Source of the DNA: Candidatus Acidiferrum sp.
GTDB taxonomy: Bacteria > Verrucomicrobiota > Verrucomicrobiia > Limisphaerales > UBA11358
Reading direction: 5' to 3'
Length of the DNA: 64,000 nt
Assembly (NCBI GenBank): GCA_035506715.1
Contig: DATJOW010000017.1
Coordinates: 14,078-78,077 of the forward strand
The stretch's first letter is position 1, and each line of letters begins with the position of its first letter. This document shows positions 41,860-58,501 of the stretch, piece after piece. Below the pieces are notes generated by a model, which saw only the letters and a list, made by a program, of their open reading frames with translations, was not told the origin of the DNA and searched no databases. The position numbers and the translations under genes were made by a program.

Positions 41860-42390
41860 CTATTTGGTCTGCGACTTCGAGGGGGAACCCGGCGCGAGGC
41901 TGGGCAGGTTCGAGGCGATCGCCAAATCAATGTAGATGGCAATTTGGTTTTCGATCTGAAGGAACTGGGCCGCCCGCATCGGGGAAACCGACCGGCTGAT
42001 TCTCCGGTGGTATTTTTTCCAGAGTTTGGTGTGGTCCTCGAGGTTGCGGAGCCATTTTTCCGCCAGAACCTTCGCCGTTTCATCCGTGAACGTGTTATGG
42101 TTGTAGTCGCTGGCAAATTCCCGGGCCAGTTCCAGCTTGCGGTCGCCGATCACGGCGAGCTCCTTCTCATAGGCGCGATAAATGGGCCAGAACTTGTCCG
42201 CCTCCGCCGGCGTCAGGTTGAGCACCTGGCTGATGACCGCAACCTTGTTGGTGTTGAATTCCGAACGCAACGCGTCGAAATAGGCGCGGGTATCATCGTT
42301 TAAGGCCGGCAGGACCGGTTGGGCCGGCAGCCGGGCAGATAAAAGCACGGCTCCGGCAACGAGGCAGAGATAACGAATGGCTGCATTCAT
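41860..42390 (-). CDS. Periplasmic helical protein (hypothetical)
   Basis: Signal peptide MNAAIRYLCLVAGAVLLSARLPAQ. Helical Lys/Glu-rich mature part. No family recognised. Confidence 0.5.
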   Translation of the reverse strand: MNAAIRYLCLVAGAVLLSARLPAQPVLPALNDDTRAYFDALRSEFNTNKVAVISQVLNLTPAEADKFWPIYRAYEKELAVIGDRKLELAREFASDYNHNTFTDETAKVLAEKWLRNLEDHTKLWKKYHRRISRSVSPMRAAQFLQIENQIAIYIDLAIASNLPSLAPGSPSKSQTK

Positions 42391-42409
42391 GGTTTGTTCT
42401 GGTTGATAT

Positions 42410-44395: not shown

Positions 44396-44440
44396 TTCCT
44401 TTGATTGGGTCTGGCGGTCAGGGACCGGTGCTATGGCATT

Positions 44441-45229
44441 TCAAACTTTGCCGGGCGGCGGTTCCGCCGAGGGAGGCGGCGGGACAGGTGGCGGTTCCGG
44501 TTTGACCGTAATCGTGGCGGTCGGGGTTCCGGCAGTGGGAGGGTTGGCCGGGCCACCGGTCATGGAGAGGCTGATGGAAACCGGCATCATCCGCTCGGCG
44601 ACGGAAACGGTTTTCCAATTGAAGATGATCGCCAGCAGGCGGAACACAAAGGTGGCGCCAACGGCCATCAAGCCGGCCTTTTGAAAAGACCAATCGAGGC
44701 GCATCAACATCCAGGTAAACAGGCAGGCGCCCAATACTGCCCCCAGAACGTAGAGTTGCCCGGGCTTGAACAGCAATGGCTCTTCGCGGACCAGCACGTC
44801 GCGCAGCAAGCCGCCACCGGAGGCATTGATGACGCCGACCATGATCGCCGCCACGACGGACAATCCGGCATTGAGGCATTTTTCGACTCCGACGACGGCG
44901 TAGGCACCCAGCCCCAGCGCGTCTGCCAGCAGAAATACTTTTTGCAGACGGTCGATCCGACGGCTGAACGCAGCCGCCACGACGCACCCCGCCAAGACGA
45001 CGTATAGGTAACGCTCGTCCTGCATCGCCAGCGGCGGGCCGTTTTGGATGAAGATGCTGTCACGGATCAAGCCTCCTCCCAGGCCCGTCACCAGCGCCAG
45101 AACGAACAGGCCGACAATGTCATAATTTCGGCGGATGGCCACCAGCGCCCCGCTCAGCGCGTAAAGGAACGTGGCGCCGAGATCGAAGTAAATCGGCAGG
45201 ATAAACTGGCCTTTGAGTTCAACCGTCAT
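44441..45229 (-). CDS. TRIC / UPF0126 family cation-channel-like membrane protein with Pro-rich tail
   Basis: ATG at 45229 verified. Duplicated UPF0126 motif (LYALSGALVAIRRNYDIVGLFVLALVTGLGGGLIRD; second copy AAIMVGVINASGGGLLRD). Confidence 0.8.
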   Translation of the reverse strand: MTVELKGQFILPIYFDLGATFLYALSGALVAIRRNYDIVGLFVLALVTGLGGGLIRDSIFIQNGPPLAMQDERYLYVVLAGCVVAAAFSRRIDRLQKVFLLADALGLGAYAVVGVEKCLNAGLSVVAAIMVGVINASGGGLLRDVLVREEPLLFKPGQLYVLGAVLGACLFTWMLMRLDWSFQKAGLMAVGATFVFRLLAIIFNWKTVSVAERMMPVSISLSMTGGPANPPTAGTPTATITVKPEPPPVPPPPSAEPPPGKV

Positions 45230-45304
45230 TGGATCTTTTGTGCCACGTCCGGAACCGCCGGGGGCGCGCGCCTTCAGCGCGCGCCCCTTCATCTCATCCG
45301 GCGA

Positions 45305-46744
45305 TCAGAACAGCGAGTAAACCATGCCGGTCTGGACGCGCCAGACATCGCCATGGGCACCGTCGTTCTCTTCCTTGTAGCCGTAGAGGCATTCCAAGCC
45401 GACGCTGAGCCGTTTGCGGAGCTGCCAGACCAGGTTCCCGCTGGAATAATACGTTTTGTGGTAGGCGGCCCCGGTCTGGGCTTGCTCATTTTGCAGATCC
45501 ACGAAGCCGAACGTGGCGGTGGAACGGAACTTTTCCGACCATTGGTGCGTGTAACCGCCCATGGTGGCCAGGTACGTCAGCGACTGCAATGAACCGTCCG
45601 CGTTGTACGCTGCGTCGCCGCCGTTGAACCCGGTGTAGGTGAAGTTGTCGTTGCAGAAGGCGAAAATGCCCTGGCCGTAGGTGAACTGGGCCTGGACCGA
45701 GTCATGCTCGAAAACGTTTAAACTGGTGGACAGGTTCAAACCCCATCCCAAAACGTTCTGCTGACCGAGGGTCGGGCTGTTGGCGCCGATATCGCGCAGG
45801 ATGGTGGCAAACTGCACATGGCCCCACTTGGAGTCTTCCCAACGAACATTGAAGCCGCCATCCGGCAAATGGTTAACCGAGGAAGCGTCAGTGCCCGGTG
45901 TGCCGGCGGTATCAACCTGCGATGAGGGCTGCTGCACTCCGAAGTTTATCTGCCATCGATCATTGAGCGGCAGCATGTAGCGCACCGTCGCCTGCCGCGC
46001 AAAGATCATCGAATTCGGCCCTTCGAAGTCCACCGTGTCCGGCCAGACGTCCGGGTCTTCGAAGATGCTGTACGTGAAGCCGGCCGTGACATTGTAAATC
46101 TGGCCGTATAATTGTTTGAGGCGATAGGACATGCCGCTGCCGCTGCCGAAAAAGTCGTTGTTGTAGTAGAAGCGGAAGTCGCCCGGCATGTTGGGCGCCC
46201 GCACGTCCATGCTCAGGGACGAGCCCTTGGCGGTCATGTTGAACTGCTCGCCGCCACCGTATTGCGGGGTGTGTTCCATCGGGATGGTGGCGGTGACAAA
46301 CCGGTCCGGATTTCCGGAATTCTGGTTGTCCTCCATCATATCCACGCGCGGCTTCGCGTTGAACTTGATGAGGGCGTCCGTGTTGGGCACCGGGATGAAC
46401 CCCCGATATTTGGGATCAAGCGTGAGGTCGTTCAACCGCGGTGCGGCTTCCTGCATGTCGTTCATGTTGGCCCGGTCCGCCACGGGGCTCGGGTGCCCGA
46501 TGATGGGGTTGGTCGGCATGGCAAAATACACACCCTCACCGACGTTGGTTCCCGGCGCCGCGACCATCCCCCTCTGCTTTTCCAGTTCGGCAATTTTCTG
46601 CTGCATCTCTTCCATGCTTTTTTGCATGGCCTGCATGGCGGATTTGAGCTGGTCGAGCTCGGACGACTGGGCCGGCGCCGCGAGGACACCGGCGGCCATC
46701 AACGAAATGACCACGATTGAAGTTTTCATGGTTGCTGGTTTCAT
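45305..46744 (-). CDS. Outer-membrane porin with N-terminal coiled coil (DcaP-like architecture)
   Basis: Signal peptide, coiled coil ELDQLKSAMQAMQKSMEEMQQKIAELEKQ, alternating beta-strand pattern, C-terminal ...GMVYSLF with terminal Phe. Confidence 0.7.
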   Translation of the reverse strand: MKPATMKTSIVVISLMAAGVLAAPAQSSELDQLKSAMQAMQKSMEEMQQKIAELEKQRGMVAAPGTNVGEGVYFAMPTNPIIGHPSPVADRANMNDMQEAAPRLNDLTLDPKYRGFIPVPNTDALIKFNAKPRVDMMEDNQNSGNPDRFVTATIPMEHTPQYGGGEQFNMTAKGSSLSMDVRAPNMPGDFRFYYNNDFFGSGSGMSYRLKQLYGQIYNVTAGFTYSIFEDPDVWPDTVDFEGPNSMIFARQATVRYMLPLNDRWQINFGVQQPSSQVDTAGTPGTDASSVNHLPDGGFNVRWEDSKWGHVQFATILRDIGANSPTLGQQNVLGWGLNLSTSLNVFEHDSVQAQFTYGQGIFAFCNDNFTYTGFNGGDAAYNADGSLQSLTYLATMGGYTHQWSEKFRSTATFGFVDLQNEQAQTGAAYHKTYYSSGNLVWQLRKRLSVGLECLYGYKEENDGAHGDVWRVQTGMVYSLF

Positions 46745-46775
46745 AAATCAATTTCGGGTTGCAGGATTTTAAGGG

Positions 46776-47882
46776 TTACTTGAGCGAACCGAACAGGTCC
46801 AGGTCCAGTTCCCTGACGATGTAGTCAATCGCCTCGGTGGCCCGCACGCTGTTGCCGGCCTCGTTCACGGGAGGTGAAAATCCGACGACGGCCATTTTAC
46901 CCGGAACCACGGCGACAATGCCGCCGCCCACCCCGGTTTTGGCGGGCAGGCCGGCGTTGTAAGCCCAGGCCCCGGATTCATCGTAGAACCCCGCCATCAT
47001 CATCACCGCCAGAACGCGCGGCACATACTTCGAATCCAGGCAGCGCTCCTGGGTGATCGGGTTCACCCCCCCGTTGGCCAGCGTTGCGCCCATGACGGCC
47101 AGTTGTTTCGCGGTCACGCCGATGGAGCATTGTTTGGTGTACACATCGGTCGCCTCCGGCGGGTCACAGAACAGGTTTTCGTTGTTGTACAGGATCCAGG
47201 CGATGCCGCGGTTGCGGAAATTCGTGGCCGCCTCGGATTTGTAAACCTCGTCAATCAACTTGAGTTTCTCGCCGGCAAATTTGCTTTGATAGGCCAGAAT
47301 CTTCTCCCAGCGATCCTCGGGACCGTTGGCCTTGACCAGGCTGACCGACGCCATGGCCCCGGCGTTCACCAGCGGGTTGACCGCCTTGTTGTTGTGCATG
47401 CCCAGCGCCACCACCGAGTTGAACGGCATCCCGGTCGGCTCGACGCCGATTTTCTTGAACACCGCCTCTTCGCCGGATTCCTGCATGACCTGGGCCATGG
47501 TGAACACCTTCGAGCAGGACTGGATGGAGAAGGCGTAGTCAATGTCGCCGGCGCTGTACACTTTGCCGTCCGCGGTGACGATGACCACCGCGAACAGGTT
47601 CGACGGCACGCTGGCAAGGTACGGAATGTAGTCGGCGTTCTTGCCCGACTTGTCGTCTTTGAATTTGTTGTAGGCTTCTTCGACGACACGCTGCAGATCA
47701 GGCGTCGCCGAGGGAGCAGCCGCGGTTTGGCCTGCGGCCGGTTGGGCTGCAGACTTGTTGTTATGAACCTGGATACAACCAACCACGGCGAGCAGCGAAA
47801 CGACCAGCACGACTGCGCTCAGGTGGCGAAGGCTGAGTCCGGTTTTTTTAGTTTTCATGGTTGTGATCATGGTGGTTTTCAT
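46776..47882 (-). CDS. glsA: Exported glutaminase A (lipoprotein-type signal)
   Basis: YIPYLASVPSNLFAVVIVTADGKVYSAGD, FSIQSCSKVF (beta-lactamase-like SxxK), KTGVGGGI. Signal LSAVVLVVSLLAVVGC. The start is ambiguous (ATGs at 47918, 47882, 47870, 47858). Confidence 0.85.
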   Translation of the reverse strand: MKTTMITTMKTKKTGLSLRHLSAVVLVVSLLAVVGCIQVHNNKSAAQPAAGQTAAAPSATPDLQRVVEEAYNKFKDDKSGKNADYIPYLASVPSNLFAVVIVTADGKVYSAGDIDYAFSIQSCSKVFTMAQVMQESGEEAVFKKIGVEPTGMPFNSVVALGMHNNKAVNPLVNAGAMASVSLVKANGPEDRWEKILAYQSKFAGEKLKLIDEVYKSEAATNFRNRGIAWILYNNENLFCDPPEATDVYTKQCSIGVTAKQLAVMGATLANGGVNPITQERCLDSKYVPRVLAVMMMAGFYDESGAWAYNAGLPAKTGVGGGIVAVVPGKMAVVGFSPPVNEAGNSVRATEAIDYIVRELDLDLFGSLK

Positions 47883-47940
47883 CTTTGTAATCTTGGATTG
47901 GGATTTAATCTGGTTCATCAGCGGATCGCGACAGTAAGGC

Positions 47941-49005
47941 TTAATACTCCATAAAGTACTGCTGCAATTTCTTCGGGTCATTGGTCTTCATCAGGCCGAG
48001 CATCGCCAGAATGCGGGCCTTTTGCGGGCTCAATTCCATCGAGGTGATGAAACCCAGTTTGTCGTCGTCCACCTCGACGTTGCGCACCACCAGGCCGCTG
48101 CCGGTCCGGGTTGCTCGAACCACCAAAACACCCTTTTTGGCGGCGTCGGAAAGCGCGGCAATCACCGCGTCGGTGCTGTTGCCGTCCCCCACCCCCGCGA
48201 GCACGATGCCCTTGACGCCGTCCTTGACCAGGAAGTTCACGACCTCAGGCCCGACATTGGCGTAGGAATAAACAATCTCCACGCGCGGCAGGTCGTTCGT
48301 ACCCTTGCCGTCCACGGAAAATTCGCTCCTCGTGGTGTGCTTGGTGGTGTTGTGGTTGAAGAGATGGATCGTGCCCACGTTCATGACGCCGGCCCGGCCG
48401 CGATTGGGCGACTGGAAGGTATTGAGCGAAGTGCTGTTCATCTTCTGCGCCTCACGCGCATAGTGAATTTCGTCGTTGAGCACGACGAGCGGGCCGAGGC
48501 CGCGGGCATCCGGGCTCGCCGCGAGCGCGACCGCGTTGTAAAGATTCGCCGGCCCATCTGCGCTGGTCGCCGTGGCCGGGCGCATGGAACCGACGAGGAC
48601 CACCGGCTTGTCGCTGTGAACGACGAGGCTGAGAAAATACGCGGTTTCTTCCATGGTATCGGTGCCGTGAGTAATTACAACGCCGTCCACATCCTTGTCA
48701 GCCAGGACTTCGTTGACGCGTTTGGCCAGCTTGAGCCACACCTCGTGGTTCATCGTCTGGCTGCCGATGTTGGCCACCTGCTCCCCGCTCAAGTCGGCGA
48801 GATCGCCGAGGTGCGGAACAGCCTTGATGAGGTCATCCACCGAAAAGCTGCCGGATTTGTAGCCGACCTCGGTGGAGCTGGCCTGGGCGCCGGCGATGGT
48901 GCCGCCGGTGGCGAGAATTTTGATCTTGGGTTTGGCCTGGGCGGCGGTGGAAAACATCAAGGCCATCACCGCAACAAGGCACAGGAGGTATCGTGTCGTT
49001 TTCAT
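47941..49005 (-). CDS. ansB: Periplasmic type II L-asparaginase
   Basis: Signal peptide, then KIKILATGGTIAG (catalytic Thr), HGTDTMEETA, GVVLVVRATRTGSG. Confidence 0.9.
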   Translation of the reverse strand: MKTTRYLLCLVAVMALMFSTAAQAKPKIKILATGGTIAGAQASSTEVGYKSGSFSVDDLIKAVPHLGDLADLSGEQVANIGSQTMNHEVWLKLAKRVNEVLADKDVDGVVITHGTDTMEETAYFLSLVVHSDKPVVLVGSMRPATATSADGPANLYNAVALAASPDARGLGPLVVLNDEIHYAREAQKMNSTSLNTFQSPNRGRAGVMNVGTIHLFNHNTTKHTTRSEFSVDGKGTNDLPRVEIVYSYANVGPEVVNFLVKDGVKGIVLAGVGDGNSTDAVIAALSDAAKKGVLVVRATRTGSGLVVRNVEVDDDKLGFITSMELSPQKARILAMLGLMKTNDPKKLQQYFMEY

Positions 49006-49071
49006 ATTCAGTTCAATTTTGGTTTGCAGTTTGTTTTTGCCCGTTGGTTCACAATTTGAGTTCGCTGAAAT

Positions 49072-50721
49072 CTAGGCCGCCCGGCCTCTCTTTGAGGCCT
49101 TCCATTCCGTGACATAGGCCTGCGCCGCGGTGCGGAGGTATTGCCCGATCTTCGGATAGGTGTCTTCGGGGAGGTTGGCCAGCGAGACCCGCACGGACCA
49201 GTCTGGCCCGCCGAAGCCGCCGCCGTGCATGAGCACCACGCCGGAGTGCTCGGCCAGGCGGAAGAGCACGTCGGTGCATTCGTAGTTCTTCCGCAAAAAC
49301 CGCGCGAAATCCGGGCCGTACTCCTTTTCCGCCCACACCATCAGGTCAAGCTGGACGTAATAGGCGGCGCGGTCGCTGTCAGGCGGCAGCGTCAGGCCCA
49401 GGCCCTCGAACATCGCCTGAAACCGCCGACGCACGATGATCTGGCAAAGGGATTTGTAACTGTTGGCCGTGTCCAGCAGGGCGAACGTGGAGAACAGCGC
49501 CATCTGGATCTGCTGGGGCAACGAAAGGCCCGCGGTGTGGTTCAACGCCACCATCCGGCTGTCCGCCACCATGCGGTCGATGAACTTCACCTTGGCCGGC
49601 TCCAGCGTGATGGGGCTGTAACGATGATTCAGTCTGGCGCGGGTTTTGGCCGGCAGCTTCGCAATCATCTTGTCGAAGATGTTGTTCTGGTGGACGGCCA
49701 CCACGCCCAGGCGCCAGCCGGTGCACCCGAAATGCTTCGAGTAGGAGTACACGCCAATGGTGTTCTGCGGCAGCTCGGCCATGGCCGACCGGAAGCCCGG
49801 CACAAACGTGCCGTACACGTCATCGGTGATGATGATGAGGTCAGGCCGTTTCGTCTTGACGAGTTTGACCAGGCGCTGCATCGAGCTTTTGCGCATGGCA
49901 AACGACGGCGGGTTGCTGGGGTTGACGAGGAAGAACGCCTTGATGCGCTTGTCCTTCAGCTTGTCGATTTCCGCGTCGGCATATTGCCAGGTGTGGGCGC
50001 CGTTCTCGCGGCATTCGGAACTGGCGTCAAGGTTGACCACCTTGAAGGCAAAGCGGTCCATGTGCGCAATCTCAATGTAGGGCGTGAACGTCGGCACCGC
50101 CAGCGCGATGGTGTCGCCGCGATGCAACAGCTCGTTCTGCATCAGTGTATCGAAAATGTAACACATTGCCGCCGTGCCGCCTTCGACGGCAAAGATGTCG
50201 AATTTGCCCGCGGGCGGGCGGCTGTCGCACATTTCCTGGTCGAGGAATTCGTGCACGATGCGCTCGCAACAGCGCAACATCCGGTCGGGCACCGGATACA
50301 TATCGCCAATGATGCCATGAGTCAGTTCGTAGGCGAAGGCCTCGGCGTCGAACTTGAGCTTCTTGACGCCGTAATTCCAGGTGTCGCGGAGCAGCTTGAC
50401 GCCGGGCGCCTGGGGATTGGCGTCGAGGAAATCTTCAAACCGCGACGCCAGGCCGGGACTTTGGGCAATCTGCCTTCCCAGGTCGGGGATGTTGACGCCC
50501 CGGCGGGATTCTTCGAGGCCAAAGCGAAGGAGCGTTCCAAAGGCGTCGCGCGGCGTGGTGCAAATCCAGTTTGGATTGCCGCGACCGGCGTTGAGGAATT
50601 GGGCCGTTTGATCGCGCTCGGCCACCTGGGCGAGCTTGATCAGTTCATCTTTCAGTTCGAACGGGCTGAGTTTGAGCAGCGCTTTTTGATGTTCGCGCGT
50701 TGTGGAGGCTTTTATGTTCAT
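49072..50721 (-). CDS. asdA: Aspartate 4-decarboxylase (PLP-dependent)
   Basis: Strong resemblance to characterised AsdA: LSPFELKDELIKLA, LNAGRGNPNW, FAVEGGTAAMCYIF, VNPSNPPS, TDDVYGTF, YSYSKHFGCTGWRLGV, KFIDRMVADSRMVALNHTAGLS. Confidence 0.85.
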   Translation of the reverse strand: MNIKASTTREHQKALLKLSPFELKDELIKLAQVAERDQTAQFLNAGRGNPNWICTTPRDAFGTLLRFGLEESRRGVNIPDLGRQIAQSPGLASRFEDFLDANPQAPGVKLLRDTWNYGVKKLKFDAEAFAYELTHGIIGDMYPVPDRMLRCCERIVHEFLDQEMCDSRPPAGKFDIFAVEGGTAAMCYIFDTLMQNELLHRGDTIALAVPTFTPYIEIAHMDRFAFKVVNLDASSECRENGAHTWQYADAEIDKLKDKRIKAFFLVNPSNPPSFAMRKSSMQRLVKLVKTKRPDLIIITDDVYGTFVPGFRSAMAELPQNTIGVYSYSKHFGCTGWRLGVVAVHQNNIFDKMIAKLPAKTRARLNHRYSPITLEPAKVKFIDRMVADSRMVALNHTAGLSLPQQIQMALFSTFALLDTANSYKSLCQIIVRRRFQAMFEGLGLTLPPDSDRAAYYVQLDLMVWAEKEYGPDFARFLRKNYECTDVLFRLAEHSGVVLMHGGGFGGPDWSVRVSLANLPEDTYPKIGQYLRTAAQAYVTEWKASKRGRAA

Positions 50722-50741
50722 AGATTTGGGAGGGTATTGGT

Positions 50742-52469
50742 TTAGCGCATCATAACGACGATCACGGTTCCCCAGGCAATCAGGAGCACGTTGCCAAGAG
50801 CGTAGGGCAGGCCGTAACCAAGCGCGGGCACCTTGCTGTCGGCGGCTTCCTGCACCGCCAGCAGCGATGGCGTCGCCGTGCCCGCGCCGGCACAGGCTCC
50901 CAGCACGATCCCCGGATGCATTTTCAACAGAAAACGGCCGACGAGAATGGCAACGGTGTGCGAAATGAAAACAACCGCCAGGCAGACGAGGATGAGGCCG
51001 AAGCCGGCCTCCTTCAACCCCGTGAAAAACGCCGGGCCGGCGCTCAGGCCGACCACGGCGATGAACGCGTTCAGGCCGACGGAATCAAACAGCCACAGGG
51101 CGGACTCGGGAATGTGCCCAAAAACCGGGTAAACGGACCTCAGCCAGCCGAGCACCAGGCCCGCAAACAGTACGCCGCCACTCGTGCCCAGGCCGACAGG
51201 GATGCCGTGGACCGGCAACTCCTGCAGGCCCATCAGGCCGCCGATGAAAATGCCCAGCCCCACAAACACCATGTCGGTCATGCTGGTGGCCCGGTTGACG
51301 TAGCCCAAAACCCTGGCCGCGCGCTCGACATCCCGCTGGGCGCCAACCAGCGTCAGCGTGTCGCCGCGGTTCACCTCGGTGGCGGCGGTGAACGGCAGTT
51401 CGGTGCCGGCGCGGACAATTTTGCGCAGGATGACGCCATGGCTCATCAGCCGCCCCTGGTCGCTGATGGTCGCCAATTCGGCCAGGGTTTTGCCGCTGTA
51501 CTCCTTGTTGGTGACCACGACATCCAAAATGACCCCCGGGAAATCCAGCAGCTCCTTGTCCTCCACCTCTCCCGTCAGCGGGAAGTCCGGCGCCAGCAGG
51601 AATTCGCGCCGGGCGATGAGGGCCAGCACGTCGCCCGCGAGGATTTTCATCTGCGGCTCCGGCTCGAGGAGCTGCTCGCCCCGGCGGAGGCGTTGAACAA
51701 ACACGCGCCGGCCGGCCCCGTGCCAGCGCGCCTCGAATTCGGCGATGGTCTGGCCGGGAAGATCACCGCCGGGGACGCGATAGGCCCGGATGTCCCAGGC
51801 CCGGTAGGCCGATTGCACTCCGGGCGCATGGCTGGGCCCGCCGCCGGACATTTCCTGCTCCAGCTTACGGCATTCCTCCTTGAGGTTCACCCGCATGAGC
51901 AGCGGGCCGATGGCGGGCAGGAACCAGGCGGTGCTGATGGTCCCGAGCAGGTACGTGACGGCGAAAGCGATCGTCATCTTATCCACCAACTGGTCCTGGT
52001 CGGCCTCCGGCATGGACAGGCGATGGATGGCGTCGCCCGCCGTGCCGAGCGTGGCCGACTCGGTCATGGAACCGGCCAGCAGCCCGGCCGTGGTGCCGAT
52101 GTTGTAGCCCATGAGCCGCGCGGCGGCGAACGAGGTGCACAAGGCGGTCAAACACAGAACCACCGTGACCACCGCCTGGGGCAATCCCGTCTTCCGCAAT
52201 CCGCCGAAGAACTGCGGGCCGACCTTGTAGCCGATTGCGAACAGGAACATCAGGAAGAACACCGCCTTGACGTTCGGCGAGACGTCAATCTTCATCTGGC
52301 CGATCAGGACGCCGGCAATCAAAACACCCGTGACCGACCCGATGGCGAACGACCCGAACTTGATCCGCCCGATCAGGTAGCCCAGCGCCAGCGTCAGAAA
52401 GACCGCCAGCTCCGGGTGCTGTTGCATTGCTTTGATGAGCGGTTCCATGCTAATGGGAAAATCGGGCAA
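50742..52469 (-). CDS. aspT: AAE-family transporter, aspartate:alanine antiporter-like
   Basis: Duplicated YidE/YbjL-type membrane domains flanking two RCK_C/TrkA-C domains. Starts 7 nt after the upstream gene and lies 20 nt upstream of asdA, the classic aspT-asdA pairing. Confidence 0.75.
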   Translation of the reverse strand: MPDFPISMEPLIKAMQQHPELAVFLTLALGYLIGRIKFGSFAIGSVTGVLIAGVLIGQMKIDVSPNVKAVFFLMFLFAIGYKVGPQFFGGLRKTGLPQAVVTVVLCLTALCTSFAAARLMGYNIGTTAGLLAGSMTESATLGTAGDAIHRLSMPEADQDQLVDKMTIAFAVTYLLGTISTAWFLPAIGPLLMRVNLKEECRKLEQEMSGGGPSHAPGVQSAYRAWDIRAYRVPGGDLPGQTIAEFEARWHGAGRRVFVQRLRRGEQLLEPEPQMKILAGDVLALIARREFLLAPDFPLTGEVEDKELLDFPGVILDVVVTNKEYSGKTLAELATISDQGRLMSHGVILRKIVRAGTELPFTAATEVNRGDTLTLVGAQRDVERAARVLGYVNRATSMTDMVFVGLGIFIGGLMGLQELPVHGIPVGLGTSGGVLFAGLVLGWLRSVYPVFGHIPESALWLFDSVGLNAFIAVVGLSAGPAFFTGLKEAGFGLILVCLAVVFISHTVAILVGRFLLKMHPGIVLGACAGAGTATPSLLAVQEAADSKVPALGYGLPYALGNVLLIAWGTVIVVMMR

Positions 52470-52476
52470 TGATTAA

Positions 52477-55239
52477 TTATTTCTTCGCTTTCGCTGGTTT
52501 GCCGCCGGCGCCTTTCTTTTCGAGTTTCAACACCTTCAATCCCGCGGCGGCGTGGTAGCCGTGGATTTCCTTCACGTCCAGTTTGCGCATGAAGGTGATG
52601 ATTTCCGGGCTGATGACCTGGCCGGGCACCATGATGGGGAAACCGGGCGGATACGGGATGACGAAGTTGGCCGAGACCAGTTCTGGGCCTTTCTTCAACC
52701 GCTCATCAATTTCCTTGCCGTTGAGCTTGATGTGCTCGCAATTTTCCTCGTCGTAGGCCGCGTAGAAGGCCGCGCGCATGTCACCCTCGGGCGTCTTGCT
52801 CTTCGGATTGGCCCGGAACAAATCGTGATAGCGGCTGAAGTTCGGCAGGTCCGGCACTTCCTCGCAGAGCGACTTCACGCGCGCCTGGAACGTCTGCGCC
52901 TCCTCGCTCCGGGAGTTGGCCAGCCGCGCCTCGAGGTCGCGCGCGATGTCGGCCAGCACCTTGATCAGATAAGCGATGTCGCTCCGGGTGTTGTTGATGT
53001 TCGTCATCAGCAGGATCGTGTTGCGCGAGGTCTTGTTGATCTGGATGTCGAATTTTTCGGCGAGCAGGCCCTTGAATTGCGTGCCGTCGAAGCCGGCCGT
53101 GCCGCACATCAAGGTGAGCCGCGTCGGGTCCAGCGCAAACTCGTCGTTGTCCAGCGCTTCGATGGCCTCCTTCCAGGTGGAATGCGGCGGGCCGTAGTCC
53201 GCCAGGCCGCTGCCGCGCAGTTCCGCCGGTATCATTTCCGCCGGGGTCAGAATGCGAAAGTACTTCGAAATGAGCGGATGCGAGTTCACCTCGCGCCGCA
53301 GTCGGATGGCGAAACCCGTGTGCTTCATCACCAGCTCATAGCCTTCCAGCTCGGCCTGCCGGCGCGCGACATCGAGCGAGGCAAGGATCTGCTGGTTGGG
53401 CGAGGTGGAGGTGTGCGTAAAGAACGCCTCGTCGAACGGCTCCTCGACCGATTCGAAATCGTCGTCGTTCACCATGATCATGGATCCCTGGCGCAGTGAC
53501 GAAAGGGATTTGTGGGTGGATTGAGTGGCGTAGACGCGGATCCGCACCTTGTCCGGATCGGGCAGCAGATGGAGATCAAGCCGTTTCGGGTCGTTGGGCC
53601 CGAGCTGGGCGGCCTGCTTTTGGAACGCGGCGTATTCGGCCCGGTAAGCCTCGTCGCGATAGCGCGCCCGCAACGCGTCCGCGGCGGCCATGCCGGTGCG
53701 CCGGCGATGGAACGGCGAGAACCGCGCAAAACTGAACCAGGCCTCATCCCAGAGGAAAATGAGATCGGGTTTGATGGCGAGGCATTCCTCCATCACCCGC
53801 TTGGTGTTGTACAGGTGACCGTCGAAGGTGCAGTTGGTCAGGTCGAGCATCCGGACGCGGTCGAGCTTGCCTTCGGCCTTCAGGTCCAGCAGCGCCTTTT
53901 TGATCGTGCGCAGCGGCACGCCGCCGTACATCGAGAATTTATGGAGCGGAAACGCTTCCAGATAGACCGGCAGCGCGCCCGCCAGCACGCAACCGTAGTG
54001 ATGCGATTTATGGCAGTTGCGATCGATCAACACGATGTCGCCGGGCCGCAACAGCGACTGGACCACGATTTTGTTCGACGTGGAAGTGCCGTTGGTTCCG
54101 AAATAAACGCGCTGCGCGCCGAAACAGCGGGCGGCTTTTTCCTGCGCCTGTTTGATGTTGCCGGTCGGCTCCAGCAGACTGTCGAGACCGCCAGTGGTGG
54201 CCGATGATTCCGCCAAAAACAGGTTGGCGCCGTAGAACTGGCCCATGTCCTGAATCCAGTTGGATTTGAAAATGGATTTGCCGCGGGCGACCGGCAGGGC
54301 GTGAAAGGTGCCGATGGGCCGCCGGCTGTACTTCTTGAGCGTCGAGAAAAAGGGCGTGTCGTAGCGTTCGCTGACGCCTTCCAGGACGCTCAAGTGCAGT
54401 TCCATCAATTCTTCCACGTCGTAAAAGACGCGCCGGATATTTTTCGTGTCGAGCTGTCCCGCCAGCGACTCGACCGCGCGGTCGGTCAGCAGATAAACGT
54501 CGAGCTCGGGGCGGATGCCCCGGATGCCCTTGGCCAGCGTGGTGCCGTAGGCTTCGGGCGCCAGCGAATCGGGATCGACCGGCAGATGCTGGGCGATCTG
54601 GCTCCGAAACACCGGCAGGTTATAACCGGATCGCAAAGCGAATCCGTCATAAATCACCACGGCTTGGACGTTGAAATTGCAGATAACTCCGAGCGCGGCG
54701 TCCTCGAAGCTGGGCACGAGAACGATTTCGTAAATGAAAGGGTCTTCCGGCCGGCGCAATTTCCGGATTTCCTCGCGGATGCGTTTGGCCTGTTCGGCGT
54801 TGACGCCATCGCGCACCACGAGCACCTCGAAGTACGGGCGCGGCCCATCACCGGTCTGGAGATGCGCCGGCAGCGAGGGCAGAATTGTGTCCGCATTTTC
54901 ATCGTCCGTTTCCCACACGCTGGCGTCGTGGCGGTAGGAACCCCGCAGCAATGCCCGGCTGATGCGGTCGGTCAGCCGTGAGAAAGCGGCGAAATCCTCC
55001 TGCTTCAACAAGTCCCGCAACCGGCCGAACAGCTCCGGGCCGGGATACGCCCAGTAACTTTCGAGCGGCTCCAGTTCGGCGAGCAGTTGCGCAGCCTGTG
55101 AACGCAAATCCGCGGCGACCTTAGGCTGAGTGAGCGCCTTGGCCGTGTTGTGCAATTGCTGCCAGCGGTCCTGGCGGGCTTCGGTGGCACTGAAAAAATC
55201 CTTCAAATCGAGCGAGGTGGTTTTTGAGGCAGTGGCCAT
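52477..55239 (-). CDS. Large Orn/Lys/Arg-family (fold I) PLP-dependent amino-acid decarboxylase with receiver-like wing domain
   Basis: Wing-like YFEVLVVRD...IVLVPSFEDA, major domain with the PLP-Lys motif ATQSTHKSLSSLRQGS, C-terminal ANFVIPYPPGFPIMVPG. The ATG at 55239 is preferred over the TTG at 55245. Substrate unknown. Confidence 0.85.
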   Translation of the reverse strand: MATASKTTSLDLKDFFSATEARQDRWQQLHNTAKALTQPKVAADLRSQAAQLLAELEPLESYWAYPGPELFGRLRDLLKQEDFAAFSRLTDRISRALLRGSYRHDASVWETDDENADTILPSLPAHLQTGDGPRPYFEVLVVRDGVNAEQAKRIREEIRKLRRPEDPFIYEIVLVPSFEDAALGVICNFNVQAVVIYDGFALRSGYNLPVFRSQIAQHLPVDPDSLAPEAYGTTLAKGIRGIRPELDVYLLTDRAVESLAGQLDTKNIRRVFYDVEELMELHLSVLEGVSERYDTPFFSTLKKYSRRPIGTFHALPVARGKSIFKSNWIQDMGQFYGANLFLAESSATTGGLDSLLEPTGNIKQAQEKAARCFGAQRVYFGTNGTSTSNKIVVQSLLRPGDIVLIDRNCHKSHHYGCVLAGALPVYLEAFPLHKFSMYGGVPLRTIKKALLDLKAEGKLDRVRMLDLTNCTFDGHLYNTKRVMEECLAIKPDLIFLWDEAWFSFARFSPFHRRRTGMAAADALRARYRDEAYRAEYAAFQKQAAQLGPNDPKRLDLHLLPDPDKVRIRVYATQSTHKSLSSLRQGSMIMVNDDDFESVEEPFDEAFFTHTSTSPNQQILASLDVARRQAELEGYELVMKHTGFAIRLRREVNSHPLISKYFRILTPAEMIPAELRGSGLADYGPPHSTWKEAIEALDNDEFALDPTRLTLMCGTAGFDGTQFKGLLAEKFDIQINKTSRNTILLMTNINNTRSDIAYLIKVLADIARDLEARLANSRSEEAQTFQARVKSLCEEVPDLPNFSRYHDLFRANPKSKTPEGDMRAAFYAAYDEENCEHIKLNGKEIDERLKKGPELVSANFVIPYPPGFPIMVPGQVISPEIITFMRKLDVKEIHGYHAAAGLKVLKLEKKGAGGKPAKAKK

Positions 55240-55279
55240 AATCAATTTTTGGTCTTGGTTGTTGGTCGGTTCAAAATTG

Positions 55280-56971
55280 TCATTTCATCATCAAAATAAT
55301 CACCATGCCCCAAATGGTAAGCAGGGTGTTGCCGACGGCGTAGGTGACGGTGTAGCCCAGCGCTGGCACCTGGCTGCGACCCAGATCACAGATCAAACCC
55401 AGCGACGCCGTGGTCGTGCGCGCCCCGGAGACAATGCCCAGCGTGAGCGCGTCGTGGAAGCGGAAAAGGAACTTGGCGACGAGCATGCCCAGCACCAGGG
55501 GAAGGGTGGTCACGAGAGCGCCCCACAGGAACAAGCTCACACCCTGCGTCTTCAAGCCGTTGACGAAGCCCGGGCCGGCGGAAATGCCGACGATGGCGAT
55601 GAAAATGTTCAGCCCCACCGAGTTCATGAACCAGACGGTTGGGCTGGGAATGCGCCCGAAGGTGGGGCGCACCGACCGGAGCCAGCCTCCCAGGATTCCC
55701 GTAATGAGCGCCCCTCCGGCCGTGGACAACGTCAGCGGCACCCCCTTCACCTTGAGGACGAGCGCGCCCAGCAGCGCCCCGATCCCGATCCACGCACCGA
55801 TGAACGCGACATCCGCCACGTCGGTGGAATGATCCGGCACGCCCAGCAGCTTGGTGGCGGCATTGACGTCCTGGTTCCGACCCACCAGGGTCAGGATATC
55901 GCCCCGCTGAACTTTAGTATTGGGCAGGATGGGAATTGTTGTGCCGGTCGCCCCCCGCGTGATTTTCCGCAGGAACACCCCACGCGCCGCGGGCGCGTTC
56001 GCCAGCTCGAGAAGCGTCTGGCCATCGACGGCCTTGTTGGTTACGTAAACATCCACGCCTGACACCGGCACGTTCAACAACTCCGGGTCCTCGATTTCCT
56101 GTGCGCCTTCCCCGATCAATTTCACAAGCAGTTCACGCCGGCCGACAACCGCCACCACATCGCCTTCCTGTAACACAGTGTCCGCGGTGGCTTCCTCGAT
56201 CGTTCCGTTCCGGCGAATCCGTTGGACGAAGAGGCGCGCTTCCGGGAGCAGTGTTTCAGCCTCGACGACCCGGAGGCCGACCGCTTTCCCGCCGGTCTTC
56301 ACCCGGAACGCCCGCAGCTCAAACTGATGCCACGCGGAACCGGGTCCCCCCATTTCCTTGGTACCGCCGAATTTTTCCTCGTAGTCCCGGCAAGCCGCCG
56401 GCAGATCGATGCCGAGCAACTTGGGACCGAGCAAGGCAATAACGAGCGCCGAGCCCACGGTGCCGAACAGGTAAGTCACCGCGTACGCCACCGGCATCCC
56501 GTCGAACATCGCCTTGGTCTGGTCGGGCTCCAGCCCCAGCCGGTTGATGGCGTCGGTGGCGAGCCCCATCGACGCGGAGATGGTTTGTGAGCCGGCGTAA
56601 AGCCCCGCCGAGTAACCATAATCGTAACCGGCCATTTTGCAGACGACGACGGTAACAACCAGGCAGAGCACACACTGGACCACGGAGAAGAGCGCCTGCG
56701 GCACGCCGTCCTTGGCGATGCCGCGGACGAACTGCGGCCCAACTCCATAGCCAACGGCAAACAGAAACATCAGAAAAACAGTCGCCTTGAGGGGCGCCGA
56801 AATGGTAATCCCGATCTGGCCGATCAGGACGCCGGCCAACAGGGTGGCGGTGACCGACCCGAGGCCGATGCCCTTGAACGTGAATTTGCCAAAGTAGTAC
56901 CCGAGAGCCAGCGTGAGAAAGATCGCAATCTCCGAATATTCACGCAACGTGGCGAAGAACCAGGCAATCAT
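55280..56971 (-). CDS. Second AAE-family (AspT/YidE/YbjL-type) transporter
   Basis: Paralog of 50742-52469 (for example [25 protein letters not shown] and [16 protein letters not shown]) with two central RCK_C domains. Confidence 0.85.
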
Positions 56972-57306
56972 ATTTTACCTTTTTCCTTCCTTGCTTCCGG
57001 CTTGGTTAAACCGGCATTGTGGATTCCTCAATTGTCCAATCGGCACGCCGGCCAGCGGCTGGCCGGTGACCTTGCCAAGTCTGATTTTTCCCATCCTTAC
57101 ACCGCCCGGCAAAGTTCCCCGCGTCGCCAACAATGACATCACGGACTCAGGGGGAACATGAGCGGCCATTTGGCGTGTCAGGGCGATTCTGCCCGAACAA
57201 TGCCTCCCGGCGATCCGGTGATAATCGGTCGTCATTGTTTGTTGCGTGCGCGGGCTCAGTACCGAAGTTTCCTTCCTGTTTACGCGAACCAGTGCATGCC
57301 GGTCTA

Positions 57307-57322
57307 TTGGACTTTGGTCCAA
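57307..57322. promoter_or_regulatory. Palindromic operator candidate TTGGACTTTGGTCCAA upstream of the decarboxylase/antiporter gene array
   Basis: TTGGAC-N4-GTCCAA. On the minus strand it is followed after 24 nt by TAAACA. Counterpart of the site at 32996-33011. Confidence 0.5.
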
Positions 57323-57469
57323 GCCTAAGGTGCAGTATCAGTGCAATTTATGAAAATTCGTAGCCACACTTGGGACGGACAGCCTGAAAGCCGCCTTATG
57401 GCTAATAGCCCTTTCCCCGTCCTTGGCGGCAACTTGCGCTTCCACCATCCGGCAAAATGACGCGACGGG

Positions 57470-58501
57470 TCACTGATTCCCGGACATTCCCGGTAATCCT
57501 TCGCGAATGCGGGTAGAAAAATCCGGGTCCTGGTCGGCCGCCTTCGCCTTGTCGTTGATCAAACTGCGTTTTTTCAGCTCGGCCATCGGCAGGCTGGTGT
57601 CAATGCGACCGCGCTCGTACAGCAATTCGTTGCCGAAGCCGTTCACCAGCATCCGCCAGTCCCACGGGGCGCGGTCGGCGGCGGCGCGCTGCGTCCGGAT
57701 GCCGGTCGTGCAGTTGTCGGTAACCGCGTTGTACCACTCCGGCCGCGCGTGCAGGGAGTTCAAGCGATGAACGTAGTCGAGAAACAACTGGCGCGCCTGT
57801 TGGGGCGAACCCCGCAGCCGGTAAAGGTAAGCGTCCTCACCTTTTCGATAGTTCGTCCGCAGCCGCACGAGGTCGCGCTCGTCGGCGGCGACGTAGGTCA
57901 GCTCAAACTGGCGGTACAACCCTTTGATGGCCGAATAGCCCTCCCCCTTTTCCTTCCGTGTTTCGATGGAGAAACAGAGGTAATCGCCGCCTTCGAACCC
58001 AAAACTCATCATCGTGTGCGCCATGTACGGCGAACCCCAATAGACCATGTAGAGATCCACGCTGCGGAGCTTGTCCAAGTCGAAGGTTTTGTCGTAATGA
58101 CGCACCACGTAATCGGTCTCAGTGCGGTAATCACAATTCCGGATGTTGTGCATGGTTACGAGGTTGCCGTTGATGTCGGCATAGGGCAGCACGGCCAGGT
58201 CCGGCGTCCAGTCGCGGTCGTTGGACGGCGGTATGAGGAGGAACCAAATGACGACGCCGGCAAAGGCGGCCAGGAAGATGACCCGCGCCAGCCAGCGGGG
58301 CCGAACCCAGATAAACACCGCCATAGTACCGATGACGAACGCGACCGCCCCGGCGGTTCGCAGCCAGGGCGCCGGCAGGTTCGAGTAATAGATGGCGCCC
58401 ACCGACCAGAGCGTCAGGATGGCCACCATCAGCCAGTACAGAATCCAGCCGGCGGCGCGCAGCAGCCAGCGGAGCACGCGTTTTCCCGGATTCTGGATCA
58501 T
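57470..58501 (-). CDS. DUF4105 domain membrane protein
   Basis: N-terminal TM helices, then NIRNCDYRTETDY...VDLYMVYWGSPYMAHTMMSFGF...FSIETRKEKGEGYS...YRQFELTYVAADERD, typical of DUF4105 (from memory). ATGA overlap with the upstream gene. Confidence 0.75.
   Translation of the reverse strand: MIQNPGKRVLRWLLRAAGWILYWLMVAILTLWSVGAIYYSNLPAPWLRTAGAVAFVIGTMAVFIWVRPRWLARVIFLAAFAGVVIWFLLIPPSNDRDWTPDLAVLPYADINGNLVTMHNIRNCDYRTETDYVVRHYDKTFDLDKLRSVDLYMVYWGSPYMAHTMMSFGFEGGDYLCFSIETRKEKGEGYSAIKGLYRQFELTYVAADERDLVRLRTNYRKGEDAYLYRLRGSPQQARQLFLDYVHRLNSLHARPEWYNAVTDNCTTGIRTQRAAADRAPWDWRMLVNGFGNELLYERGRIDTSLPMAELKKRSLINDKAKAADQDPDFSTRIREGLPGMSGNQ

Follow-up and report, generated by a model that had tools for sequence, protein, structure and literature searches.

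In Escherichia coli and lactic acid bacteria, the GadB/GadC system takes up glutamate, releases GABA and consumes a proton, which provides acid resistance and proton-motive force. In E. coli, this system can be fed by a glutaminase as well. Another glutamate decarboxylase, Rv2531c of Mycobacterium tuberculosis, was characterized by a knockout, isotope labelling and NMR on the purified enzyme, demonstrating that it decarboxylates L-glutamate, but not Lys, Orn or Arg, and forms GABA in vivo and in vitro (PMC13506015). Its K0.5 for glutamate is very high (509 mM), the knockout altered GABA only and the role assigned to the enzyme in M. tuberculosis is that of a GABA shunt fed from the internal glutamate pool (PMC13506015). 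Neither of the two papers on Rv2531c (PMC13506015, PMC12329521) mentions transporters or gene context. The AAE family of transporters already includes a glutamate exporter (PMC12462496, PMC9527358), and a literature search revealed no paper describing the pairing of such a decarboxylase with an AAE gene. The preliminary description of the locus presented here had anticipated a new combination of substrate and antiporter. This holds true for the antiporter, whereas the switch of this enzyme family to glutamate as substrate was published in August 2026, leaving the AAE combination as the only novelty.

The eight-gene array

The window, i.e. the whole stretch of 64,000 nucleotides that was analyzed, contains an array of eight genes encoding a porin, an asparaginase and a glutaminase that are both predicted to be exported, two exchangers, two decarboxylases and a UPF0126 protein:

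55280..56971, (-) strand: AAE exchanger 1 (P0002, clade A1), 563 aa; TIGR03802, 644.5 bits
52477..55245, (-) strand: long-form (four-domain) OKR-fold decarboxylase according to Pfam and PDB alignment; predicted L-glutamate decarboxylase of the Rv2531c type
50742..52469, (-) strand: AAE exchanger 2 (P0003, clade A2); TIGR03802, 626.4 bits
49072..50721, (-) strand: aspartate 4-decarboxylase AsdA; NF006755, 769 bits, and TIGR03801, 761 bits, both above cut-off
47941..49005, (-) strand: periplasmic type II L-asparaginase (AnsB) with Sec signal peptide; TIGR00520, 436 bits
46776..47981, (-) strand: glutaminase A (GlsA) with lipoprotein-type signal peptide; NF009020, 490 bits
45305..46744, (-) strand: DcaP-like outer-membrane porin; Pfam DcaP, 60.8 bits
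44441..45292, (-) strand: UPF0126 / 'Gly_transporter' membrane protein, the final gene of the array; Pfam PF03458, 128 bits

The long-form decarboxylase comprises 922 aa when read from a TTG and 920 aa from the ATG at position 55239, which is likely the start codon; a database copy of the protein (P0004) has 920 aa as well. Counted from this ATG, the gene lies 40 nt downstream of exchanger 1, exactly as described before (34 nt to the TTG). Exchanger 2 follows 7 nt past the decarboxylase stop codon and is located 20 nt upstream of AsdA.

Judged by their N-termini, asparaginase and glutaminase are both exported. The asparaginase starts with a Sec signal closing ...FSTAAQA-KPK. The signal sequence of the glutaminase (...LSAVVLVVSLLAVVGC) is of the lipoprotein type, closing LLAVVGC, in agreement with the exported glutaminase postulated earlier; this protein probably starts at an internal Met located at 47918-47858, past the asparaginase stop codon. 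Homologues of the glutaminase in loci L077, L103, L104 and L106 likewise possess hydrophobic signal-like N-termini, and in L077, L104 and L106 the exported glutaminase resides within the array, as in the window. At L103, the glutaminase belongs to an array without the decarboxylase, which is found approximately 100 kb off together with its own AAE gene. A DcaP-like gene also occurs inside the arrays of L077, L104 and L106 and adjoins the decarboxylase gene in the Acidobacteriota loci L006, L009, L010, L011 and L040, while a UPF0126 gene accompanies the array in L004, L104 and L111. In the window's phylum, two of 401 genomes possess the array, and a near-copy of the eight-gene array exists in a Burkholderiales genome (L104).

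Relationship and predicted substrate of the decarboxylase

Pfam detected the domains OKR_DC_1 (248 bits, split into two stretches) and OKR_DC_1_C in the decarboxylase, in which the PLP-lysine (K579) lies in an S-T-H-K motif. Relatives of the protein carry the JGI name 'arginine decarboxylase'. The domains and this label would fit an ordinary biodegradative Lys/Arg/Orn decarboxylase with an incidental AAE neighbor, but this explanation is extremely improbable. The protein scored five to eight times below every NCBIfam cut-off for the Ldc, Adi and Spe enzymes (LdcC 201 vs. 968 bits, LdcI 187 vs. 1056, ODC 157 vs. 794, AdiA 155 vs. 1167, SpeF 149 vs. 1310), and its best match to a Lys/Arg/Orn enzyme (E 1e-50) covered the core only. 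Pfam and NCBIfam profiles run on the window genes revealed no APC antiporter near the decarboxylase. The phylogenetic placement suggested in the preliminary description yielded a monophyletic group of all long forms (SH-aLRT 100), apart from the five E. coli enzymes CadA, LdcC, AdiA, SpeF and SpeC on which the tree was rooted. The inactivity of the characterized relative on Lys, Orn and Arg and the conservation of the AAE neighborhood across phyla (see below) also speak against a basic substrate.

With the structures of Rv2531c (PDB 9N0N/9N0O), the decarboxylase aligned in one stretch (E 6e-236, 788 bits), residues 23-906 corresponding to residues 25-896 of 9N0N at overall lengths of 920-922 and 947 aa, respectively. 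The wing domain, the STHK motif and the N-terminal extra segment of about 130 aa mentioned earlier were all recovered, and the segment corresponds, from residue 23 onward, to the four-helix-bundle domain of Rv2531c (PMC12329521). Thus, the window protein has the four-domain architecture with the additional N-terminal helical domain. The residues to which a role in binding PLP and glutamate is ascribed (PMC13506015) have as equivalents H412 (H405 in Rv2531c), K413 (K406), the PLP-lysine K579 (K570), R585 (R576), T614 (T606), K725 (R718) and N737 (N731), the conservative replacement of R718 by K725 being the sole change. All seven positions (with K or R at 725) are kept in 75 of 75 long-form proteins. 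At positions 585, 725 and 737, where the window protein has R, K and N, the E. coli enzymes possess S, E/D/A and E/T, which on the basis of the alignment is a charge reversal of the pocket that suits an acidic side chain.

The assumption that the substrate is an acidic amino acid, probably glutamate, and not Lys, Arg or Orn, is strongly, though indirectly, supported by the full-length kinship to Rv2531c and by the preservation of the implicated residues. We consider it likely that the 920-aa protein is an Rv2531c-type L-glutamate decarboxylase that is coupled to one or both flanking AAE exchangers as a precursor/product antiport cycle. For the clade of the window protein itself, glutamate is the predicted substrate, since the clade is separate from that of Rv2531c, the only characterized member, to which the protein is approximately 45% identical. 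This distance, the very high K0.5 of Rv2531c and the lack of an in vitro assay with Asp in the respective report (PMC13506015) leave some room for another acidic or neutral substrate in the Gram-negative clade (alpha-decarboxylation of Asp to beta-alanine, cysteate or cysteine sulfinate, 2-aminoadipate), the AAE protein swapping this pair and glutamate being used by the mycobacterial clade only. Such a substrate is unlikely, however, given the glutamate recognition residues kept throughout the long forms, the exported glutaminase in four arrays including that of the window and the exclusive effect of the Rv2531c knockout on GABA. Moreover, a second aspartate decarboxylase next to AsdA would be redundant.

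Association of the decarboxylase with AAE genes

Of 42 non-actinobacterial loci, 31 have an AAE gene as the immediate neighbor of the decarboxylase gene on the same strand, at a distance below 400 nt that usually amounts to a few tens of nt; among 38 Actinomycetota loci, there is none with such a neighbor. The 31 paired loci belong to Verrucomicrobiota, Acidobacteriota, Methylomirabilota and alpha-, beta- and gamma-Proteobacteria. This neighborhood occurs in five phyla and goes far beyond chance, and a pairing confined to the window, which had been named as an argument against the original proposal, was thus not observed. Within 10 kb of the decarboxylase gene, no AAE gene was found in three Bradyrhizobium loci and in the Delftia/Rhodoferax clade.

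The two AAE genes flanking the decarboxylase are the only ones in the window genome. In Comamonas kerstersii, Alcaligenes endophyticus, Lysobacter niastensis and Bradyrhizobium yuanmingense, the decarboxylase-AAE pair stands alone, with no AsdA anywhere in the genome. AAE proteins of clade D scored 369-416 bits with TIGR03802, i.e. below the cut-off. Their genes are located directly downstream of the decarboxylase gene in 12 of 12 loci and were found nowhere else; the position is the same in a truncated copy (G551) and in G726, the sole new match obtained when a clade D protein served as the query.

In many other loci a single A1 exchanger lies between the decarboxylase and AsdA (GADL-A1-AsdA), and in two Acidobacteriota assemblies it is the only AAE gene present. 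Consequently, the two enzymes either share this exchanger, or one of them runs without exchange. This arrangement would also be compatible with the other substrates discussed above. Among Burkholderiales sampled with AsdA as the seed, genomes with a clade C AspT beside AsdA lacked the decarboxylase (0/7), while it was present in all five genomes in which AsdA adjoins an A1 or A1c AAE gene. One further genome (G565, L112) lacks the decarboxylase, but has beside AsdA an A-superclade AAE gene that lies on a long branch. The AsdA lineages diverge along the same lines as the AAE clades. In Burkholderiales, a co-inherited mobile array, and not function, could be behind the link between A-superclade exchangers and the decarboxylase.

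From this parallel splitting and the apparent horizontal mobility of the array, it might be argued that the enzyme acts on the internal glutamate pool in a GABA shunt, which is the only physiology demonstrated experimentally for the family, and that the AAE genes serve AsdA only or plain import or export, their adjacency being due to co-regulated catabolism or a co-transferred island. We regard this as quite improbable, because the pair also exists in genomes devoid of AsdA, clade D genes occur beside the decarboxylase only and the gaps on both sides of the window decarboxylase amount to just 7-40 nt. Furthermore, no GabT or SSADH match above the NCBIfam cut-off, by which the shunt would be carried on, was obtained for the window genome (92.7% complete). 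GABA is therefore probably not metabolized any further and has to be released from the cell. This genome also lacks a PF00282 decarboxylase, and its best match to GadC reached 24 bits at a cut-off of 673.

Clades and binding residues of the exchangers

Exchanger 1 (P0002) contains two Asp-Al_Ex domains and a TrkA_C domain (Pfam), and both window exchangers exceed the cut-off of 547 bits of the AspT equivalog TIGR03802. In the trees, P0002 belongs to clade A1, whose genes in other genomes mostly lie with this decarboxylase on one side and AsdA on the other, and P0003 to clade A2 (SH-aLRT 92-98). Both lie in the A superclade, outside clade C comprising the canonical, AsdA-only AspT (740-787 bits). 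Accordingly, the upstream exchanger is a paralog of AspT as proposed at the outset, while the AsdA-adjacent one does not represent AspT proper. The AspT binding residues T130, S132, Y163, Y167, L431, F434 and T496 are kept in P0002 and, except for Phe at the Y163 position, in P0003. Differences exist at the hairpin tips: T-Q-S in hairpin 1 of AspT is T-I-S in P0002 and T-E-S in P0003 (Q131 to Ile and Glu, respectively), and the Ser of hairpin 2 (S498) is Thr in both. P0002 is a candidate for a Glu:GABA exchanger, an Asp:Ala exchanger or both. That the AAE proteins act by exchange, and not as uniporters or symporters, and that this exchange is electrogenic, we infer.

Proposed cycle and comparison with known systems

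The following pathway is proposed. Substrates would enter through the DcaP-like porin, and the exported asparaginase and the lipoprotein glutaminase would convert Asn and Gln in the periplasm to Asp, Glu and ammonia. One or both flanking AAE exchangers may then import Glu(1-) and release GABA(0), whose formation from glutamate would use up one cytoplasmic proton. By this exchange and the proton consumption, the cycle would build a membrane potential and a pH gradient or guard against acid, in parallel with the Asp(1-)/Ala(0) cycle of AsdA and an AAE exchanger encoded by the same operon. The probable function of the pair is to exchange glutamate for GABA, whereby acid is consumed or energy is gained. 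As a general rule, we are inclined to believe, with some reservation, that long-form glutamate decarboxylases in soil and water Gram-negatives rely physiologically on AAE exchangers for Glu:GABA antiport, clade D being dedicated to this task and A1 possibly bispecific (Asp/Ala and Glu/GABA), which would constitute a second, non-homologous GadB/GadC-like cycle. If so, the eight-gene array would be a horizontally mobile pathway that converts Asn and Gln from outside the cell to Ala, GABA, ammonia and CO2 and builds proton-motive force across both membranes.

With CadA/CadB, AdiA/AdiC and SpeF/PotE of E. coli, the window system shares the OKR_DC_1 superfamily, the wing, core and C-terminal domains and the location of the decarboxylase gene beside an antiporter gene (cadB, adiC and potE adjoin the genes of their enzymes). 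These systems, however, use basic substrates and APC antiporters, and their enzymes do not have the N-terminal four-helix domain. Rv2531c is much more similar, having the same succession of N-terminal helical domain, receiver-like wing, PLP core and C-terminal domain (PDB 9N0N/9N0O/9N0P; PMC13506015, PMC12329521), the S-T-H-K motif, the H-K pair and the equivalents of R576, T606 and N731. On the other hand, it belongs to a separate clade, has R718 where the window protein has Lys, and is encoded by a gene without transporter neighbor, while the window gene has an AAE exchanger gene on either side and shares its operon with the genes of a porin and of exported amidohydrolases. AspT/AsdA of Tetragenococcus halophilus (structure in PMC12462496) has in common with the window the transporter family (TC 2.A.81), AsdA in the operon and the proposed logic, an anionic precursor entering, a neutral product leaving and one proton being consumed. 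Unlike AspT, the window exchangers fall outside clade C, flank a glutamate-type decarboxylase and are altered at the hairpin tips (Q131 and S498). In its predicted chemistry and physiology, the window system equals GadB/GadC, even though neither of the two components is homologous and it comprises an OKR-type PLP enzyme in place of a PF00282 decarboxylase, an AAE elevator-type exchanger in place of an APC antiporter and a glutaminase that is, according to its signal sequence, exported.

The decarboxylase and its gene array

The OKR-fold decarboxylase P0001 belongs to a tight, co-directional array of eight genes on the minus strand, which is transcribed in the order P0002, P0001, P0003, AsdA, asparaginase, glutaminase, porin and UPF0126.

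Genes of the array, in order of transcription
55280-56971, minus strand: exchanger 1 (P0002) of the aspartate:alanine exchanger (AAE) family; TIGR03802, 644 bits
52477-55245, minus strand: OKR-fold decarboxylase (P0001); 920-922 aa
50742-52469, minus strand: AAE exchanger 2 (P0003); TIGR03802, 626 bits
49072-50721, minus strand: aspartate 4-decarboxylase AsdA; NF006755, 769 bits
47941-49005, minus strand: type II asparaginase (AnsB); TIGR00520, 436 bits
46776-47981, minus strand: glutaminase A (GlsA); NF009020, 490 bits
45305-46744, minus strand: DcaP-like porin; Pfam DcaP, 60.8 bits
44441-45292, minus strand: UPF0126 membrane protein ("Gly_transporter"); Pfam PF03458, 128 bits

P0001 is separated from its neighbors by 34-40 nt on the upstream and 7 nt on the downstream side. 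Its PLP lysine is K579 within the motif S-T-H-K, and an extra N-terminal segment is present. A Sec signal was found on the asparaginase and a lipoprotein-type signal, ending in LLAVVGC, on the glutaminase. Thus, the preliminary description, which had pointed to an unusual pairing of a decarboxylase with an AAE exchanger, was confirmed in every detail. As listed, the glutaminase reading frame overlaps the asparaginase stop codon by 41 nt; its true start is probably an internal methionine at 47918-47858, which leaves the lipoprotein signal peptide intact. Since a promoter and terminator scan of positions 42000-58000 revealed sites no more numerous than in shuffled sequences, no operon boundaries are claimed from it.

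Identity of the decarboxylase

The scores of P0001 were five to eight times under the NCBIfam cut-offs for LdcC, LdcI, AdiA, SpeF and ornithine decarboxylase. Compared to solved structures, the protein matched the entries 9N0N, 9N0O and 9N0P ("probable amino acid decarboxylase") in a single stretch covering residues 23-906 (E 6e-236), while the best lysine or arginine decarboxylase structure matched only the core (E 1e-50). The three entries represent Rv2531c of M. tuberculosis, for which an extra N-terminal four-helix bundle has been described (PMC12329521). A clean deletion mutant, 13C labelling and NMR with the purified enzyme demonstrated in 2026 that Rv2531c converts L-glutamate to GABA and is not active on lysine, ornithine or arginine; residues H405, K406, T606, R576, R718 and N731 were implicated (PMC13506015). 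By alignment to the solved structure of this close relative, the equivalent pocket residues of P0001 are H412, K413, T614, R585, K725 and N737. This pattern, with lysine or arginine at position 725, is common to all 75 long-form (Rv2531c-type) homologues collected. Aligned with AdiA, CadA, LdcC, SpeF and SpeC from the annotated E. coli K-12 record, the long forms carry R, K/R and N at positions 585, 725 and 737, as opposed to S, E/D/A and E/T in the classical enzymes. The long forms have two more positive and one or two fewer negative charges at these positions, as would be required to accommodate an acidic instead of a basic side chain. Phylogenetic placement, proposed in the preliminary description as a check on the idea of an acidic substrate, set the long forms apart from the five E. 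coli enzymes as a monophyletic group (SH-aLRT 100; E. coli enzymes as outgroup; all trees are quick or FastTree searches). Within this group the Mycobacteriaceae clade branches first, followed by a Micrococcales/Streptomyces/Delftia clade and a Gram-negative clade containing P0001.

Conservation of the pairing

Whether the pairing is kept elsewhere was studied in a single scan of species-representative genomes, which yielded 80 loci with 10-kb flanks. With a neighbor defined as an immediately adjacent gene on the same strand at a gap of <400 nt (usually some tens of nt), an AAE gene adjoined the long-form decarboxylase in 31 of 42 non-actinobacterial loci, related genomes being non-independent samples, and in none of 38 loci of Actinomycetota. 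The 31 loci belong to Verrucomicrobiota, Acidobacteriota, Methylomirabilota, alpha-, beta- and gamma-Proteobacteria and one MAG of unassigned phylum. The pairing is therefore conserved outside the window, a point on which the preliminary description had made its hypothesis depend. Among the exceptions, the AAE gene lies two genes off in one locus, and three or four others are truncated contigs. Three Bradyrhizobium loci (L018, L019, L021) have no AAE gene within 10 kb of the decarboxylase. The window genome possesses only two AAE genes and its decarboxylase is flanked by both; by chance, such an adjacency would have a probability on the order of 1 in 1000 at each locus. Comamonas kerstersii, Alcaligenes endophyticus, Lysobacter niastensis and Bradyrhizobium yuanmingense contain the decarboxylase-AAE pair and lack AsdA genome-wide (best match 60 bits vs. 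a cut-off of 435). The AsdA/AspT system does not account for the pairing. A database protein of 1489 aa with OKR and AAE domains (P0033) was considered as a Rosetta-stone fusion and rejected; frameshift-garbled stretches in its sequence make an assembly artefact more probable than a genuine fusion.

AAE clades and their substrate site

The exchangers fall into clades with different contexts. Clade D, a long branch scoring under the TIGR03802 cut-off (369-416 bits), always lies directly downstream of the decarboxylase and never with AsdA (12/12). The truncated clade D copy in genome G551 has the same position, as does the one new match (G726) retrieved when 401 Gammaproteobacteria were searched with a clade D protein. 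Clade C (740-787 bits) was recovered by sampling 301 Burkholderiales with AsdA as the seed; 16 of these genomes have AsdA. The clade adjoins AsdA, none of its seven genomes contains the decarboxylase, and it is the canonical AspT. In the same sample, an AAE gene of the A superclade (A1, A1b, A1c, A2 and A3; 568-700 bits), whose members occur in loci or genomes with the decarboxylase and include P0002 and P0003, was found beside AsdA in six genomes. Five of these have the decarboxylase; the sixth (G565, locus L112) is without it and its AAE is long-branched. The typical order for clade A1, to which P0002 belongs, is decarboxylase-A1-AsdA, while A2 (the clade of P0003) and A3 are second exchangers next to either A1 or D. 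The closest relative of P0002 (80% identity) is encoded at locus L004 of another Verrucomicrobiota genome (G710, an unpublished Chthoniobacterales MAG) with the order decarboxylase-A1-AsdA...A2-UPF0126.

In AspT, aspartate is liganded by T130, S132, Y167, L431, T496 and S498, and the site is lined by Q131, Y163, Y524 and three phenylalanines (PMC12462496). Pairwise and multiple alignments showed most of these residues to be invariant across all AAE clades; the hairpin tips are clade-dependent.

Hairpin tips of the AAE exchangers
T. halophilus AspT: hairpin 1, T-Q-S; hairpin 2, T-L-S
Clade C: hairpin 1, T-Q-S; hairpin 2, S-A-N
Clade D: hairpin 1, T-M-S; hairpin 2, S-H-S
Clades A1, A1b and A1c: hairpin 1, T-I-S; hairpin 2, T-T/S-T
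Clade A2: hairpin 1, T-E-S; hairpin 2, T-I/A/M-T

The tip glutamine is lost in exchangers adjoining the glutamate-type decarboxylase. A clade series with Q, I, M and E at this position could show how elevator-type exchangers discriminate between aspartate and glutamate.

Each enzyme might have its own exchanger: exactly two AAE genes occur in the window genome and likewise in each of four Burkholderiales genomes that carry both decarboxylases. On the other hand, A1 might be shared by both enzymes or be bispecific. In two Acidobacteriota MAGs (G706, locus L009; G707, locus L011) with the order DcaP-decarboxylase-A1-AsdA, the A1 gene between the two decarboxylase genes is the sole AAE gene of the assembly, although gene counts in MAGs may be incomplete; both decarboxylases may thus depend on a single exchanger there. 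Bradyrhizobium speaks for a shared exchanger too, as closely related decarboxylases (branch lengths of ~0.05) adjoin clade D at L012, L013 and L020 and A1-AsdA at L014, as if the transporter partner had been exchanged recently. The 88 columns separating clade C (AsdA only) from clade D (decarboxylase only) assign neither A1 nor A2 to one enzyme: A1 resembles C at 29 columns and D at 16, and A2 does so at 29 and 13, respectively.

Related arrays and probable horizontal spread

A near-copy of the eight-gene array exists in the Burkholderiales genome G669 (L104: UPF0126-A2-decarboxylase-A1c-AsdA-AnsB-GlsA-DcaP), with 50-66% identity in seven proteins and 32% in the porin. The window-type architecture recurs in Pararhizobium (L030: A1-decarboxylase-A3-AsdA), and a gamma-proteobacterial MAG (L077) has the order DcaP-GlsA-decarboxylase-AAE-AsdA-AnsB. 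Within the phylum of the window, the long decarboxylase was detected in only 2 of 401 genomes (the window genome and 400 others), the second match (G337) being without AAE on its 8.7-kb contig. Because of this rarity and the arrays in Proteobacteria, the data point to a horizontal spread of the module. They also suggest that the window genome acquired its array horizontally, though in GC content (0.58-0.63) the array does not stand out from its surroundings.

The UPF0126 protein accompanies the array in several phyla (window, L004, L104, L111); it might be a channel for a small neutral product such as alanine or GABA, or for a counter-ion. A DcaP-like porin adjoins the long decarboxylase or lies in its array at L006, L009, L010, L011, L040, L077, L104 and L106 (Acidobacteriota, Proteobacteria). 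In the Acidobacteriota porins of L009 and L011, the N-terminus includes a repeat-rich stretch resembling a coiled coil.

Proposed physiology and relation to known systems

Both amidohydrolases carry export signals, in the window as well as in related arrays; thus, aspartate and glutamate arise outside the inner membrane and need uptake. Two parallel cycles are the best-supported model: one would lead from asparagine via aspartate to alanine, the other from glutamine via glutamate to GABA. In each, with substrate supplied by the porin, an anion would enter, a neutral product would leave and a proton would be consumed. The window genome (92.7% complete) contains neither a PF00282 decarboxylase nor GadC, and no GabT or SSADH match over the cut-off, so that GABA made here is probably exported rather than catabolised. 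Reviews of the AAE family mention a glutamate exporter (PMC12462496, PMC9527358), so the family has a precedent for glutamate transport. In the full-text literature, nothing was found on AAE proteins as GABA antiporters or on an aspartate-alanine antiporter together with an Orn/Lys/Arg decarboxylase, and both papers on Rv2531c (PMC12329521, PMC13506015) leave transporters and gene context unmentioned.

Thousands of long-form genes bear arginine or lysine decarboxylase names and their neighbors bear aspartate-alanine antiporter names. If our interpretation holds, metabolic reconstructions of bacteria from soil, wastewater and the rhizosphere are misled by both names. It also singles out specific cultivable organisms as test cases. 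For the recently recognised glutamate decarboxylase family outside mycobacteria, the gene context suggests a physiological role in energy conservation or acid protection and not in the GABA shunt.
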